A stretch of DNA of 64,000 nucleotides, taken from assembly GCF_963921235.1 (NCBI RefSeq), contig NC_086108.1:9610001-9674000 (forward strand), read 5' to 3'. A program made the position numbers and the translations under genes. The notes under the pieces were generated by a model. That model saw only the letters and a program-made list of their open reading frames with translations, did no database searches and was not told the DNA's origin. This stretch comes from Mobula hypostoma (lineage: Eukaryota). This document shows, in pieces, positions 39,643 through 47,199 of this stretch (positions are counted from its first letter, which is position 1; each line of letters begins with the position of its first letter).

Positions 39643-41669
39643 ACGACTCTCTGGTTTACAACATATACATGGTTTACCACAACGACTCTCCGGTGCTTCC
39701 CGCTCCCTCCCCTCCCGCTTCTCTCTCTCAGTCCACAATAGGGACCCATATCAGAATCATGTCATAAAATTTGTTTTTTTTTGCAGCAGTACAGTGCAAT
39801 ATATAAAATTATTACAGTATTGTGCAGAAGTCTTTGGCACCCTAGCTTTGTATATGTGTCTAAGACTTGTGCATAGTACTGTGTGTTTGTGTATATATAT
39901 AACAAAAACTGTAAATTACAATAAGAAATATGTAGATATATATATATAACTACGTATTTCTTATTGTAATTTACAGTTTCTGTTGTTAGGTATTGCAGTG
40001 TACTGTTGCTGCTAAACAAGAAATTTCACAACATATGTCAGTGATATTGAACCTAATTCAGATTCAGATTTTGTCCCGAAGAAGAGGAGGGGAGTTTCGG
40101 GAGAGACCTGGGATGGTTGTACATTCTTAACCGGCAACACGGGAGGGACTGTGCGGTCCTGATCCCCTGGGCGAGGTGGATGAGGCCGGCCGCGAGAGAG
40201 TGGCCCGGGGAAGGGGAGTGAGTGCGGCCAGGACCCTGCCACGAGGGAGCAGGACACGGCGGGATGGCAGGGTCCCTGGCAGGAGCAGCGGTTGGGTTCC
40301 ATTTCTGTGGATATTAACTCATCAACAGCGCTCAGAATAGAGAGACTTGTGAAACACAACAGATGTGCCTTCAGGGCTTGCCAGGATTGTGTGGCAGAAG
40401 CAGTGACTGAAGAGGCGATTCGCTGCCTGTCTCTCCGTGCTTCCCGACCATCACTCCACGTGGACTGAGGGTCCAAGGGCAACCCGTGGGGTTTTCGACG
40501 CTGGGGGAGAGGGGGCAGTGAATTTGTCAGCTGCAGGCATCCACGCCTGGCGCCAGCTTCCTACAGGAGATACCATCACTGAGTTATCTCCGACCCCCAA
40601 CCCCCGCCCCCCCGAGACATGCAGGGGCACCTCAATCCGGTGGGTGCAGTCGGAGGGGTTCCCCACACTCTCCGCCACCCTGTGATTCTTCCTGTCAACT
40701 TCCTTGTCCAACAGCCCTGAGTATAACTCCATTCTCAGACAGACAGTCCTTGGGGTGGGGTGTGGGAAGAAAGGAGAAGGGGCGTTGGTTGGCCTGCGCC
40801 CACAGGTTCTGTGGGTATTCCAGTGGCTGAGGGATCTCCAGTGAGATCAGCAGGCGCTTTCTCTGATAGAGAAGCTCAGGGCAATACTGTCACGTCAGAG
40901 AATCAGAGCCTGGTAACAACCTTCCCACCATTTCATCCTCCCCACATTCAAATCAAATCAAGTTTAATTACTTTTCAAACCATACATGATACAGCTGAAC
41001 GAGATGGAATTCCTTTGGGGCCAAGATGCAAAACACACACGCGCATTCAAAATAGCAAAAGAGAGAAAGAGAACATAGTCATGCAAGTAAACATATTTTT
41101 AGTCCAAGACCCTGAGCGACTGTTTCTGCAAAATAGTGGTTCCAGGCAGTCCAGCCTGTAATTCCACTGATCCACCAGTGGAGGGCAGCACTGACAGGAG
41201 AGGCCACCCCGAATTGAGCATGAAGGCCACGCTACACCGCCTCTGGCATCTCCTCACCTGGACTACAGCAGCAGGTAAGCCTACGGCTTGAGACCTATCA
41301 ACTCCATTTTATTTGTCACATCTACGTCGAACCATACGTTTTATAGATGTCTGTGAAGATGTCAGAATCACGGTTAATATCACTGGCATATGTCGTGAAA
41401 TTTGTTAACTTCGTGGCAACAGTATAACAGGGCAGTAGCTGAGGCAGCAGAAAAAAGATCAGCATGGGTGTGGACCAAGTATGTCCAGAGGGGCAGATAG
41501 TCAGACAGTGTATACGTATCTTGTAAACCCTTCAGTAGTTGCATAGACACCTGAAGAGCAGACTATCTGTTGTATGGAAGTGACCAACAACTCTGATAGA
41601 GACAGATGCCAAGTTTTTAAGCTCACCAGTGGGAGGTGGTGCTTTAGCACTGCTGGCCCACCACCTCGA

Positions 41670-41736
41670 GGGAGTCTTGATCATAAGTGGGCCGAAACTC
41701 CTGAAGACAGGTGGCAGATCAACTGATGATCCCACT
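41670..41736 (+). ncRNA. Putative non-circularly permuted hammerhead ribozyme (copy 1)
   Basis: GGAG-UC / GAAA-CUCC (stem III); UUGAUC / GAUCAA (stem I); CUGAUGA core; CCCACU / AGUGGG (stem II). Predicted cleavage after C41676. Confidence 0.7.
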
Positions 41737-41826
41737 GGTGATAGCACAGGACAGTTAACATCTTAGTCTAAGTGTATTTTGTAACTCTTTTGTTCTGGAC
41801 ACCAGTGACTACCAGGAATAGTCTGG

Positions 41827-44800
41827 TTGGCAACCTGGAATAGTCCGGTGACAGCGTGGAGAGACAGCGGACAGCCAGGAAAGACTAGCACCGGGGGTGT
41901 CAGGATTGGCAGTCCGGGCACCAGCTCAGAAGGGCACCCACCTCTTGAAGCTTCTAGTCTACATGGAGAAACATACCCTCGGGGTCCTCTGAGAGGGAGG
42001 GAGAATGATGGACCCAATCGTATGGATACAGTTAATTACAGGGAACGACTACGACTGAGGGCTAGGATAAGAGGCTCTGAGTGTCCAGTGTGTTGGTGTG
42101 GGAGAGCGTTTTCCAGCATTAAAGGTTTACAAGTCCACCAAGCAAAGCTGAAGTGCTATTCCATCCCAGTGGATGAAGATGAGGTTTCTTCACCAAGCAC
42201 AGATGATGTGGTCTTTTCAACCACTGATTCACAAGCCACAGCGATTCGCTCTGGAGAGAGTCATCATACTCCAGGTCAGATGAGAGATAACCCAGGTCAG
42301 GTTTGAGACCACAGTACCCAGGTAGATCCTTCGCATGATGGCGGTGGTGAGGAGGTAGAGAAGAAGAGGAAGGTCAAGTGACCAGCAATGGTAGATGAGA
42401 AGGCTTGGCGTGTATTTGATGAGGATATCAGTATGATGTTGGAGAACATTCTCAGGGGAACATCAAAGAGAAAGTTGGAAGTGATGGGCGATATGATTTA
42501 CGATGTTGGAAAGTACAGGTTTGGTTTGGTTGAGTTGAAGAAAACAAAGCCTACACAGCAACCAAGCAGGCGCCAGAAGGAGATTAGCAGGTTGAGGAGA
42601 GAGCTTAGATCATTGAGACAGAGGTGGAAGGTAGCAAGTGAGGGTGACAAGCCAGGGCTTGCTGATCTCTGAGAGCATTTTTGAATAAAGTTAGCATCGC
42701 TCTGTCGTGCAGAGTCACAACGTAAAAACAGAAAGAAGAGAGAGAAGGCAAGAAAGTCGTTCTTTGAGAACCCTCACCAGTTCACAAAGAAACTGTTTGA
42801 ACAAAGTAAGAGCGGGCAGCTTAACATCTCTCAACAAGAACTTGAGGATCACCTGGCAAGCACTTACTCGAACGAACAGCGGGAGGCTCCTTTGCTTGAC
42901 ATTTCAGGGCTTGTGAAGCCTACCAAGCCAGGAGTGAAGTTCAATCTGTCAGAACCCAAACCGGCAGAAGTCGAACGGTTCATCAGAAGGGCAAGGTCAG
43001 GCTCAGTGCCAGGACCTAATGGAGTGCCGTATAAGGTGTTCAAGAAGTGTGAGGAGCTGAGGAAATACTTGTGGAGATTGTTAAAGGTGGTGTGGAGACA
43101 AGGTGTTGTTCCTTTGTCATGGAGTGAGGCTGAAGGAGTATACATCCCGAAGGAAGAGAATTCTTCTACATTGAATCAGTTCCGACCATTTTCACTCCTG
43201 AAGGTAGAGGGGAAGATTATGTTTGGCATTCTGGCAGAAAGAATATCTTCATTTGTGATAGGGAATGGATTAGTAAATACATCTGTGCAGAAGGCAGGAA
43301 TACCAGGCTTCCCGGGATGCCTTGAACATTCTAGTATGATATGACATACCATCCAGGAGTCGAAAAGGTTGAGAAGAAATCTGGCTGTAGTTTGGCTTGA
43401 TCTGGAAAATGTGTATGGATTTGTTCTCCATGTCCTGATTGAGTTTGCGATGGAATTCCTATGGATTCCTGCTAAGGTGAGGAACTTTGTTATGCAGTAC
43501 TACAACAATTTCCGGATGAGGTTTTCCACTCAGCAGTTTACAACTAGGTGGCAGAGCTTGGATGTTGGAATCCCAGTGGGATGTGCGATTTCACCCATCC
43601 TTTTTGTGTTAGCCATGGAGGTCATTGTGAGGGCTGCAGAATCAGTGGGACCAGGTGTCGCACATGATGGCAGAGGGGAGTTACCACCAATACGAGCGTT
43701 CATGGACGATCTCACCCTTCTGGGTCCCAGCACGGAGGCAGTGGAAAGTGTACTATCTAGACTCGAGGAACTAATGGATTGGGGAAGAATGAAGTTCAAG
43801 ACCAAGAAGTCAAGGAGCCTTGTTCTTAGGAGAGGAAAGCTGGTTGACTTTCATTTCACCCTTTCTGGAGAGGAGATTCCATCCATTCAGGACCAACCAG
43901 TTAAGAGCCTCGGGCGATGGTACACAGAGGAGCTGAGAGACACCAAGAGGGTTCAAGAGACAGAACAGATCAGCAGAGGTCTGATGTCTGTTGACAAGTG
44001 TGGCTTGCCTGGCAAGTTGAAGTTGTGGTGCTTGCAGTACAGACTGATGCCACGGATAATATGGCCACTAACTGTCTATGAAGTGCCAATGTCCCATGTT
44101 GAGGCAATGGAACAGAAGATCAACAAGTATGTGAGGAAGTGGCTTGGAGTACCGAGCAGCCTCACCAATGTCACAATCCACAGTAGCCAGACAAAGCTTA
44201 CCATCCCAGTGCAATCCCTTGTTGAGGAGGTCATGGTAGTCAAGGTAAGATCATTCTTGATGCTTCGAGACTCAAAAGACCCTGTCATCAAGAACACCCA
44301 GCCGGATGTGAGATCAGGGAGGAAGTGGTCAGCCCGTGTAGCAGTGGATGAGGCAGAGTCTAGATCGAAGCACAAGGAGATGGTTGGGGCTATCCAGCTA
44401 GACCGCCAGGGACTTGGATGGACAACCCACAAGTGGTGGTCATCTTCTACAGGTAAGGAGCGCCGTGAGCTTGTAACACAAGAAATATAAGAGGTAGAAG
44501 AGGAGAAGAGGTTAGCTGAAACAGCTGGCCTGGCCAAACAAGGGGCTTGGACCCGGTGGGAAAGTGTTGAACAACGACACCTATCTTGGAATGTTCTGTG
44601 GCAGATGGAACCGCTCCGCATTTCTTTTCTATGCAGAGCAGCGTACAATCTGCTCCCAACACCTGCCAACCTCAGCACCTGGTATGAAGATAAGACAGAC
44701 AGGTGTGCAGCTTGTGGCGAGGAGGAACACTTCAACATATTTTCAATGTATGCAGAGTCAATCTTTCCAGCGGCATGTACACTTGGAGACATAACAATGT

Positions 44801-45362
44801 TCTCAAAGTTGTGACAGAAGCGGTTGAGCAGAGAGTACTGCAGCACAACTTATCTCATGCCCCATGCTGCGCAGAACATCGCATATCATTTGTGAAAGAA
44901 GGCTCCAAGTCAAGGGTGTACAGCGCAGGCTCACGATCAAGCATACTTTCTTCAGCCAATAATTGGTGTGTCAAGGCTGACCTGGATGGGAAAAGCAGTT
45001 TCCCGGAGCAAATAGCTTTCACCACATTGCGTCCAGATATAATCGTATGGTCTGACACCAGTAGAGAAGTGGTTATTGGTGAACTCACAGTCCCCTGGGA
45101 AGACAACATCGATGAAGCCCATGAGCGCAAGTTAACCAAATATGCAGAATTAAGATCAGAGTGCAGAGACAGAGGGTGGAAGGTCTCATGCTATCCATTC
45201 GAAGTAGGCTGCCGTGGGTTTATTGCGTTCACTCTCCAGAAGTGGCTGCGTGACCTTGGCTTCACTAGAAGAGAGATCAAGTCAACTAGCTGGGCTGTAG
45301 CTGAGGCAGCAGAGAAAGGATCAGCATGGGTGTGGACCAAGTACGTCCAGAGGGGCAGATAG
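41827..45362 (+). pseudogene. Disrupted RT-RLE polyprotein ORF of the HERO-like element
   Basis: Same-frame segments broken by stops (e.g. 42304, 42379, 42670, 43342, 44488) and a frameshift near 44720. Confidence 0.85.
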
Positions 45363-45531
45363 TCAGACAGTGTATACATATCTTGCCAACCCTTCAGTAG
45401 TTGCATAGACACCTGAAGGGCAGACTATCTGTTGGATAGAAGTGACCAACAACTCTGATAGAGGCAGATGCCAAGTTTTTAAGCTCACCAGTGGGAGGTG
45501 GTGCTTTAGCACTGCTGGCCCACCACCTCGA

Positions 45532-45598
45532 GGGAGTCTTGATCATAAGTGGGCCGAAACTCCTGAAGACAGGTGGCAGATCAACTGATGATCCCACT
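45532..45598 (+). ncRNA. Putative non-circularly permuted hammerhead ribozyme (copy 2, in the 3' UTR)
   Basis: Identical to copy 1 at offset +3862; predicted cleavage after C45538. Confidence 0.7.
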
Positions 45599-47199
45599 GG
45601 TGATAGCACAGGACAGTTAACATCTTAGTCCACGTGTATTTTTTTTTAACTCTAATGAAATACATGATAAACAGAGAAAAAGAAAATTACGGTAAGTATA
45701 TACATGTACTTTGTATATTAAATAGTTAAATTTAAAGTAGTGCAAAAATAGAAATAATAAAAGAAGTAGTGCTAATGGGTTCAATGTCCATTCAGAAATC
45801 CGATGGCAGAGGGGAAGAAGCTGTTCCTGAATCACTGAGTGTGTGTCTTCAGGCTCCTGTACCTCCTCCCTGATATAATTCATTATGGGTTATAGGGTTG
45901 AGAAGGTATTGCTTGGATTTCCGGCATCTGGAGATTTTCTTGTTTGTAAAACTAAGTAGACCTATTTCCTGGCTCCCATGTTTTTTCTTTCAATTAGTTT
46001 TTGGAGTTGCAAAACGTAACAGAGGTGACACAGCTGTCCTGTTCCTCGATCTTCTGGTGACATGAACGTTCCTCTGTTTCTGCTCTTCTTCCCAGATGTG
46101 CCCCCGTCCACTTCACATTCCCACTCCAACCCATCCTGGTCTGGTGATCAACACCTCCACCCACTCACCTGCCCCACCACCACTATTTTATCATTTCTTG
46201 TCAGTCACCTTATGCACAGAGATTCCTGTGCCTAGCATCAATTTATGGTGATAAAATCAATCTATATACATAATCTATCTTTTGTATCTGATGTGTTTTT
46301 ATTATTTTTGTGTTCTTTATCTTATTGTGTTTTGTTTTTGTGCTGCATCAGATCTGGAGTAACAATTATTTTGTTCTTCGTTACACTTTGTGTACTGGAA
46401 ATGATATTAAACAACCTTCAATCTTCAGTGAGGGAAAGGATAGCCAGAGAGTGGTGAATCTGTGAAATTCTTCACCACGGGCAGTAGTGGAGGCCAAGTC
46501 ATTGGATGTACATAAGGCAGAGGTTGATAGATTCTTGATTAGTCAGGGCATGAAGGGATTTGGGGAGAAGGCAGGAGACTGGGGCTGAGAGGGAAAACGG
46601 ATCAGCCATGATGAAATGGTGGAGCAGACTCGATGGGCCAAATGGCCTAATTCTGCTCCTATATCTCATGGTCTTGAGGTATAAATGGTGCAGGCGCTTC
46701 TTTGTCAGTTGGTGGCGCTGTGGGACCACAGCACAGCCCAATGCCGCCAGTCCTGGAAAATGAGCCCACTTTGTGTTTGTGACAGAGTACTTAACACACA
46801 CTGATCCGGTCACTGACACTATACAACAGGCTGGGAGGTGTTCTTGAGTGAAGTATATATGCTGATGTGTGTAAATCTGGTTAAAATGCCTAATAGTCTG
46901 CTAATCACATATTCCGACATATCACTTTCTTCAACACAGGGGTGTGGATGGTATTCTTTTTAATATCCTTGCTGAGGTATGTTACTCTGCTAATGTACTA
47001 CTGTGGTGTGTTAACAGAAGTGTTGGTACGTCACTGTTAATGTGTGTATTCCACTTAAGGAGAGAAGTAGACCGTTTGGCCCAACAAATCTGCTCCAGCA
47101 TTCCAACATGGCTGATTTATTATCGTTCTCAACCCCATCTCCTGCCCTCTCTGGGTAACATTTGACACCCTGACTACCAAGAACCTACCAACCTTCTGA

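Follow-up and report, generated by a model that had tools for sequence, protein, structure and literature searches.

Why does a retrotransposon that has no long terminal repeats (LTRs) stand behind a piece of its own 3′ end? The question is raised by an element in a stretch of 64,000 nucleotides (nt) from Mobula hypostoma (assembly GCF_963921235.1, contig NC_086108.1, positions 9,610,001 to 9,674,000 of the forward strand). This stretch is called the window here, and its numbering is used unless another locus is named. The unit at 41790-45653 is a dead, degenerate non-LTR retrotransposon (long interspersed nuclear element, LINE) of the R2 superfamily. A first-pass annotation of the window likened its layout to the pseudo-LTRs of Penelope-like elements and proposed that a ribozyme brings it about. 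We find that the one-and-a-bit layout is a family-wide rule and that it recurs in a second family of the same genome, and we consider a ribozyme very improbable as its cause. Three features define the layout in the window.

41362-41427, forward strand: left half of an older interspersed repeat, the insertion target, which resumes at 45654 (from loci L009 and L021 and from contigs of public runs)
41430-41789, forward strand: upstream partial copy of the 3′ end of the element, pseudo-LTR-like, 96% identical to 45292-45653, with homology from reference position 45292
41784-41799, forward strand: junction of the 3′ end (AACTCT) with the 5′ start (TTTGTTCTGG), in the register AACTCTTTTGTT in 38 of 40 full-length copies and without extra bases

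A repeat search of the window pairs 41425-41724 with 45287-45586 as a direct repeat of 96% identity and a spacing of 3862. Alignment and BLAST widen the pair to 41430-41789 and 45292-45653 (351 nt at 96.3%), so that the repeat and its offset of 3862 are as annotated. Since the stop codon of the element's open reading frame (ORF) lies at 45360-45362 and the 3′ untranslated region (UTR) measures 291 nt, the upstream copy spans the last 23 codons, the stop and the entire 3′ UTR, again in agreement with the annotation. The end of the upstream copy, ...GTAACTCT, passes directly into TTTGTTCTGGACACC, the opening bases of the unit. The flanks support the proposal that the composite arrived in a single event. 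In loci L009 and L021 an uninterrupted version of the older repeat, with about 80% identity to the window flanks, is continuous through the insertion point, and in contigs from four public runs 45654 follows directly on 41411-41424. As the flanks rejoin across the composite, the composite sits at one point of its target. It is flanked by AA on both sides, which amounts to a 2-bp target duplication or none. The older repeat is very abundant in the genome, and in the contigs of the four runs we saw only its joined form and no element starts, element ends or pieces bridging the junction. A second, oppositely oriented copy of the older repeat lies 1.3 kb upstream and shows up as a 45-nt inverted repeat (40018-40062 with 41362-41406, 82% complementary).

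How general the layout is can be read from the 3.48-Gb genome. For the family of the window element, family A, 361-nt probes returned 2425 first-look candidates with the tail and 252 with the 5′ end; such probe counts along the unit are rough lower bounds and depend on the length of the probe. All scored 5′-end matches, 30 of them retrieved as loci and 10 fetched afterwards, make up a set of 40 full-length 5′ ends. An upstream piece of the own 3′ end is present in 39 of these, as was predicted for copies of variable length: 36 have an aligned piece of at least 24 nt and three the terminal motif of 8-17 nt, while the last one (L067) has an aberrant double junction. The pieces measure 8-1692 nt with a median of 184, and 15 of the 40 exceed 360 nt. 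Truncated copies behave differently. About nine in ten copies of family A are 5′-truncated, and none of the 19 truncated copies whose 5′ boundary lies inside the locus has a tail motif upstream (Fisher p 1e-14 against 39/40). In an independent sample of 30 tails, 28 lead into unrelated flank; the two others, in the window and in L002, continue with the exact 5′ start.

The two ends of a composite also agree with each other. The type of terminal variant is the same in the upstream piece as in the own tail for 17 of 19 composites (a count made by eye, p ~0.001), and these concordant variants include the rare forms AATTCT and TTCTG; the window and L033 are the exceptions. The starts of the pieces are spread over 1.7 kb with no dominant site, apart from a loose cluster of 8/40 in 45553-45587. 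Copies with similar starts do not share an upstream flank, and the insertion flanks are otherwise unrelated to each other. Target-site duplications are mostly absent or 0-3 bp long and are thus generally unusable as proof of one event; L048 has one of about 13 bp, and L040 lies inside a minisatellite. As the window shares its architecture with 39 other loci of the assembly, an assembly artefact, named beforehand as something that would undo the proposal, is excluded for the window. More generally, 39/40 against 0/19, the constant junction and the concordant terminal variants together rule out three alternatives: an artefact, local duplication, and a second element inserting into an older tail.

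A sibling of the window copy (L091, C50:8517600-8522400, minus strand) lies 1.13 Mb away, is 5′-truncated at 42275 and has no upstream tail piece. It has private variants in common with the window unit, with 100% identity in two 100-nt probes and 96.7% overall. We considered a segmental duplication as the origin of this match and rejected it, for L091 is a separate 5′-truncated sibling with different flanks and the overall identity is the 96.7% just given.

Some copies of family A are irregular in other ways. The junction of L067 (C63:50271377-50272206) consists of a 3′-end remnant, the initial 7 nt of the 5′ start, one extra base and a second occurrence of the 5′ start; the donor RNA possibly extended beyond the junction by a few bases. 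Large internal deletions are found in three of the 40 copies (L033, L039 and L041). Each has its own breakpoint, with ~42515-42553 joined to 45082-45376, which looks like a skip of the enzyme within its template. Stuttered 3′ termini (GTAACT GTAACTC, AACTCT AACTCT) are found in L012, L022 and L076 and suggest slippage or re-initiation when reverse transcription starts.

The same layout is found in a second family, family C. It was detected by a genome search with the fish homologue P0028, which is 44% identical to the window reverse transcriptase, and yielded 61,050 first-look reverse transcriptase candidates with 66-69% identity to P0028. Family C is thus far more abundant than family A; the search suggests that it is among the main repeats of the genome. 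In some copies the frame is uninterrupted for more than 1100 codons, and the family is possibly young. All three whole loci (L112:2222-5858, L113 and L114, on C12, C5 and C45), with a unit of 3637 nt, have their own 3′ end directly repeated upstream, over 216, 435 and 602 nt. Of another 20 5′ ends, 17 are preceded by pieces of 22-557 nt and three by none. In total, an upstream piece of 22-602 nt precedes 20 of 23 full-length copies. The junction, ...GTACACAG followed by CTTACACCC, is constant in the 17 piece-bearing further copies apart from point changes. The three copies without a piece end exactly at the unit start, where about 0.3 such copies are predicted for a continuous template (p 0.002). 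Between families A and C the 3′ UTRs are not alignable, which makes a covariation comparison impossible; each of them folds compactly with a closing helix of 10-12 bp. Since family C has the layout despite its unalignable 3′ UTR, the trait is one of the clade rather than of a single sequence.

We suggest the following course of events. Full-length insertions would arise as one-and-a-bit units in a single integration event. By analogy to R2, reverse transcription would be primed at a chromosomal nick and would copy the RNA from ...AACTCT to its 5′ end. There the enzyme would continue onto the 3′ end of an element RNA and copy tens to hundreds of bases of it (median and maximum as given above). 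Most likely it would get there by a switch in which it leaves the first template at its 5′ end and resumes at the 3′-end start site of a second RNA or of the same RNA. After the second 3′ end has been copied, the complementary DNA (cDNA) would be joined to the chromosome. A ribozyme would not be needed for this route. In the copies, full-length cDNAs and no others extend into the element 3′ end, the junction is exact and the extension is short. That a template switch in a single insertion event explains the layout has in our view about an even chance. We favor the switch because R2 proteins jump end to end in vitro, because three of the 23 family C copies stop at the unit start, and because of chimeras with a further element described below. 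The stops in family C imply that a discrete RNA 5′ end exists.

The further element, element B, is non-coding, about 945 nt long and present as at least 873 first-look candidates, with 92-nt internal tandem repeats and the 3′ terminus ...GTGTATTCTCGTCACA / CTCGTCACA. Its likeness to the LINE is limited to the last 66-80 nt, which correspond to one segment of the window unit.

45560-45640, forward strand: 3′ module common to the element and to element B, 77-90% identical to B copies, with homology from ~45560

Going by this shared end, the module is probably the part that the reverse transcriptase recognises, and element B is probably a passenger of the LINE family. We found B at L096:805-1749, L097, L098, L035:1-478 and L072:1-117. 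None of 15 full-length 5′ ends of B has an upstream piece, all of them being preceded by unrelated flank (p 1e-12 against 39/40 in A). In L035 and L072, however, the exact 3′ end of B abuts internal LINE sequence. In L035, B is followed by a piece of A (44631 to the 3′ end) and this by a complete A unit. The enzyme thus moves onto B RNA too, and does so at its exact 3′ end.

A complementarity between the two ends is found in A, C and B, where 7-8 nt located 11-18 nt from the 5′ end match a stretch 38-51 nt from the 3′ end; in the window, 41800-41807 matches 41734-41741 / 45596-45603. As many or more matches occur in 84, 252 and 53 of 2000 shuffles (A, C and B, respectively). The two ends may thus pair with each other. 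We rejected this complementarity as the cause of running on, as B has the same matches and does not run on.

Several observations weigh against the template switch. The 0/15 in element B means that running on is no simple property of the enzyme at the 5′ end of any template. The junction is uniform and without added bases, whereas the own 3′ ends at the chromosome are ragged, being shorter than AACTCT in 9/18 unbiased cases (p 2e-4), and a fresh initiation should share this raggedness. A switch to a free 3′ end further requires an RNA that ends exactly at AACTCT, and a mechanism that would produce such ends is lacking. Upstream pieces are on average no closer to their own tail than random pairs are (8/16 positive, Wilcoxon p 0.9), although the family is too star-like to give this comparison power. 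Finally, the second pass falls off more steeply than the first: 15/24 of the pieces of at least 100 nt reach 360 nt compared with 0.92, and 2/15 of the pieces of at least 360 nt reach 1000 nt compared with 0.5, where the figures for comparison come from the rough probe counts.

This fall-off would be expected if the template is already joined, as a circle or a concatemer. A cDNA that passes the 5′ start would then enter the tail without a switch and would stop early because it has to displace its own product. A pre-joined template would also suit the invariant junction (38/40 in A and the 17 piece-bearing further copies of C), the near-universal layout in A against its absence from B, and the concordance of the terminal variants. 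The three family C copies that end exactly at the unit start speak against it, as does the lack of a circularising device, for Rfam gives no ribozyme in A or C. Moreover, the upstream piece of the window does not have the lineage variant at 45387 that is common to its own tail and a sibling copy, and the fall-off itself is judged by probe counts that are rough lower bounds. We hold a pre-joined template, its ribozyme version included, to be possible if somewhat doubtful, yet not with ends at 41676/45538. A more far-reaching form is that rolling-circle reverse transcription is the normal replication mode of this R2-type LINE clade, the upstream piece being a second lap cut short. It would explain the invariant junction, the near-universality, the absence from the passenger and the steep fall-off in the second pass; we nevertheless regard it as unlikely.

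A further alternative to the template switch is that the piece is inherited. Master copies would be transcribed from inside the upstream piece, and their daughters would receive this leader, shortened by 5′ truncation. In HeT-A the upstream 3′ UTR acts as a promoter. The transcription starts of Penelope and Chlamys lie in the pseudo-LTR (PMC8557442). The invariant junction, the concordant terminal variants and the loose cluster of starts (8/40 in 45553-45587) would fit as well. However, an inherited piece could only become shorter with each generation, yet 39/40 copies keep one and 15/40 have more than 360 nt. The starts are spread over 1.7 kb without a dominant site, and copies with similar starts have no upstream flank in common. 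We therefore consider an inherited leader improbable. To the remaining explanations, all together, we likewise give a small chance.

The first-pass annotation had counted a ribozyme as part of the duplicated 3′ end, with cleavage at 41676 and 45538 freeing an RNA of 3862 nt, which could circularise and then be reverse-transcribed in rolling-circle fashion. Retrozymes are a precedent, in which paired hammerheads cut out unit-length RNAs that are then circularised; here paired ribozymes are unsupported. The motif overlaps with the fold of the 3′ UTR.

41671-41736, forward strand: proposed hammerhead, with GGAGUC (C at 41676), GAAA at 41694-41697 and CUGAUGA at 41723-41729; its twin in the own tail is at 45533-45598
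41624-41742, forward strand: structured 3′ UTR core with a 12-bp closing helix (41624-41635 with 41731-41742), from the minimum free energy fold, z-score -2.3

Both copies in the window do have the hammerhead-like words together with three helices of 6, 6 and 6 bp. In dinucleotide shuffles of the 362-nt tail, an arrangement whose helices I, II and III reach at least 5, 5 and 4 bp is rare (6/20000), and about half of the composites, those with pieces of at least ~170 nt, would carry the motif twice. If the whole unit is shuffled and no distance limit is set, however, an arrangement results in 480/1000 cases. With Rfam, neither strand of 41000-46200 yields a ribozyme family at E<=10, be it hammerhead, HDV-like, twister or any other, and family C yields none either. 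The strand order is cleavage site, GAAA and CUGAUGA, which is none of the three circular permutations of the hammerhead (type I, II or III). With this order helices I and III cross and a pseudoknot is required. The core-closing pair of helix II is a U facing a C, with unequal bulges. Helix II requires a T at 45550. The prevailing base there is C (52 of 68 copies, with T in 14 and a gap in two), and as the position is a CpG site, the T looks like decay. The 12-bp helix competes for the bases of the proposed helix II. None of the 40 upstream pieces begins within 10 nt of the predicted cut, the nearest starts being 45553 (14 nt downstream) and 45509 (30 nt upstream). Copies of element B read CUGCUGA instead of CUGAUGA and have no upstream half of the motif, and family C, with the same architecture, shows no hammerhead-like arrangement even at relaxed settings. 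That part of the annotation is thus not upheld: we think it very improbable that the motif cleaves itself, and equally so that such cleavage with circularisation produces the layout.

That a full-length element landed exactly behind the tail of an older truncated copy, or that a local duplication or an assembly error took place, is hardly credible even though some elements with a restriction-like endonuclease are target-specific (PMC4640811), for the partners should mostly be 5′-truncated and 2/2 start at the exact 5′ end, no tail precedes any of the 19 truncated copies, the flanks of the insertions are in other respects unrelated, and the 39 other loci with the same layout rule out an artefact at the window.

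The remaining features of the unit are those of an R2-type element in decay.

41790-42021, forward strand: 5′ UTR of the unit, with tandem 22-nt hairpin-like repeats at 41806-41849 (repeat family D7); the ATG of the conserved MDT is at 42022
42022-45362, forward strand: degenerate single ORF with six in-frame stops (42304, 42379, 42670, 42682, 43342, 44488) and a frameshift near 44720, from the translations
43360-43914, forward strand: reverse transcriptase domain (Pfam RVT_1, E 8.6e-12; best solved relatives R2 proteins, E 1.4e-16)
44704-44753, forward strand: Cys-Cys-His-Cys motif ahead of the endonuclease, read across the frameshift, with C, H and C (nearly) invariant in 24 homologues
44950-45290, forward strand: restriction-like PD-(D/E)XK endonuclease domain with D, E and K at ~45036, 45081 and 45129 (alignment, model and Foldseek)
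45363-45653, forward strand: 3′ UTR of the unit itself, which ends ...AACTCT without poly(A), from the comparison of copy ends

As a non-LTR element the unit has no LTRs, a defined 3′ end (...AACTCT) and frequent 5′ truncation in its family. The fold of the 5′ UTR is not more stable than shuffles (z 0.48). Among solved structures, all five sequence matches of the reverse transcriptase are of R2 type; three are named R2 or R2Tg and two are deposited as ‘Reverse transcriptase-like protein’. The C-terminal 212 residues have no match in Pfam, and phmmer and a 24-sequence profile found nothing relevant in the PDB. In the alignment of the 24 homologues D105, E120 and K136 of the endonuclease domain are invariant, and an AlphaFold model built with this alignment reaches a pLDDT of 81.5. 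Foldseek against the PDB returns R2 proteins as the top seven hits (E 1e-5 to 7e-3, TM 0.54-0.60), followed by PD-(D/E)XK cap-snatching nucleases. According to the model, the C-terminal domain is the restriction-like endonuclease part of the R2 type. Together with RVT_1, the R2 structure matches and the invariant D/E/K residues this confirms the annotated retrotransposon with a restriction-like endonuclease.

Homologues of the element are found in amphioxus, sea urchin, brittle star and other echinoderms, in molluscs and in many fishes. The 3′ flanks of about 45 copies have no common motif, so insertion occurs without a fixed target sequence. The HERO clade ‘contains many non-specific retrotransposons’ (PMC4640811), and the element probably belongs to it, a name that we base on its non-specific insertion and its host range. 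The domain order matches that of HERO elements as well. A literature search that covered a minority of the subscription journals, and not Repbase Reports, found no account of partial tandems for HERO or other LINEs with a restriction-like endonuclease, the available text of PMC10294476 included; an earlier account may exist.

In Penelope-like elements a full-length copy stands behind a 5′-truncated copy of the same orientation and of variable length, and truncation is frequent (PMC8557442; PMC8969392). The likeness that the first-pass annotation saw is real, with a truncated upstream copy of the same orientation and of variable length in 39/40 copies of family A and 20/23 of family C. The enzymes, however, are different: R2-like reverse transcriptase and restriction-like endonuclease here, telomerase-like reverse transcriptase with a GIY-YIG nuclease there. 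Nor does Rfam find a canonical hammerhead here, and in the loci read we saw neither inverted upstream copies nor a 30-40 bp ‘tail’ extension. The element thus resembles Penelope-like elements in layout without belonging to their class, as its enzymes are not those that define it.

Closer in kind are the R2 proteins, which in vitro pass from a full-length cDNA onto further 3′ UTR RNAs and in cells give head-to-tail transgene repeats (PMC11371274). The protein superfamily and the end-to-end jump to a 3′ UTR RNA are the same. In R2 the jump is a side reaction in vitro or in engineered systems, whereas here it would be the normal genomic outcome in both families. The junction is precise here, and on passenger element B no such jump is seen (0/15). 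For TART, repeats common to the 5′ and 3′ regions and the positions of promoters are sketched in a figure legend (PMC5537684). The copies described here are dispersed, unlike the telomeric arrays of HeT-A and TART; a likeness to HeT-A is that in its arrays the 3′ end of the upstream element serves the downstream one. Tandem LINE insertions are not unheard of, as a fish LINE ‘with tandem structure’, Zebulon, is reportedly the subject of Bouneau et al. 2003 (Genome Res 13:1686), going by its title. Zebulon is not known to be an R2-type element.

Partial tandems, or pseudo-LTRs, are regarded as a hallmark of Penelope-like elements. A paper from 2021 ties them to the GIY-YIG nuclease and describes them as not seen in target-primed reverse transcription of non-LTR elements (PMC8557442). 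Here they are the rule in two R2-type families. As these make the same structure with a different nuclease, the cause points to the reverse transcriptase and its template and not to the nuclease. The copies would constitute a natural, genome-scale record of a serial use of templates that is known for R2 enzymes in vitro and from gene-insertion tools. In repeat annotation such copies may be mistaken for LTR elements or give rise to over-long consensus sequences. Autonomous elements, compared with the passenger that shares their tail (0/15), provide a concrete handle on what triggers running on.

Two minor observations concern the 5′ ends of the units. The 5′ UTRs of A and C (41806-41849 in the window and L112:2240-2330) both consist in part of tandem hairpin units of ~22 nt, with GTGAC followed by a CCAGG...CTGG stem, which may be an array for protein binding or a promoter array; this pattern has been kept in both families in spite of their unalignable 3′ UTRs. 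In two of the three whole family C loci (L112:2208 and L114:2116) a reading frame begins with an ATG located 14 nt ahead of the 3′ end and continues over the junction into the main ORF; this extension may be fortuitous, the conserved MDT start lying further in.

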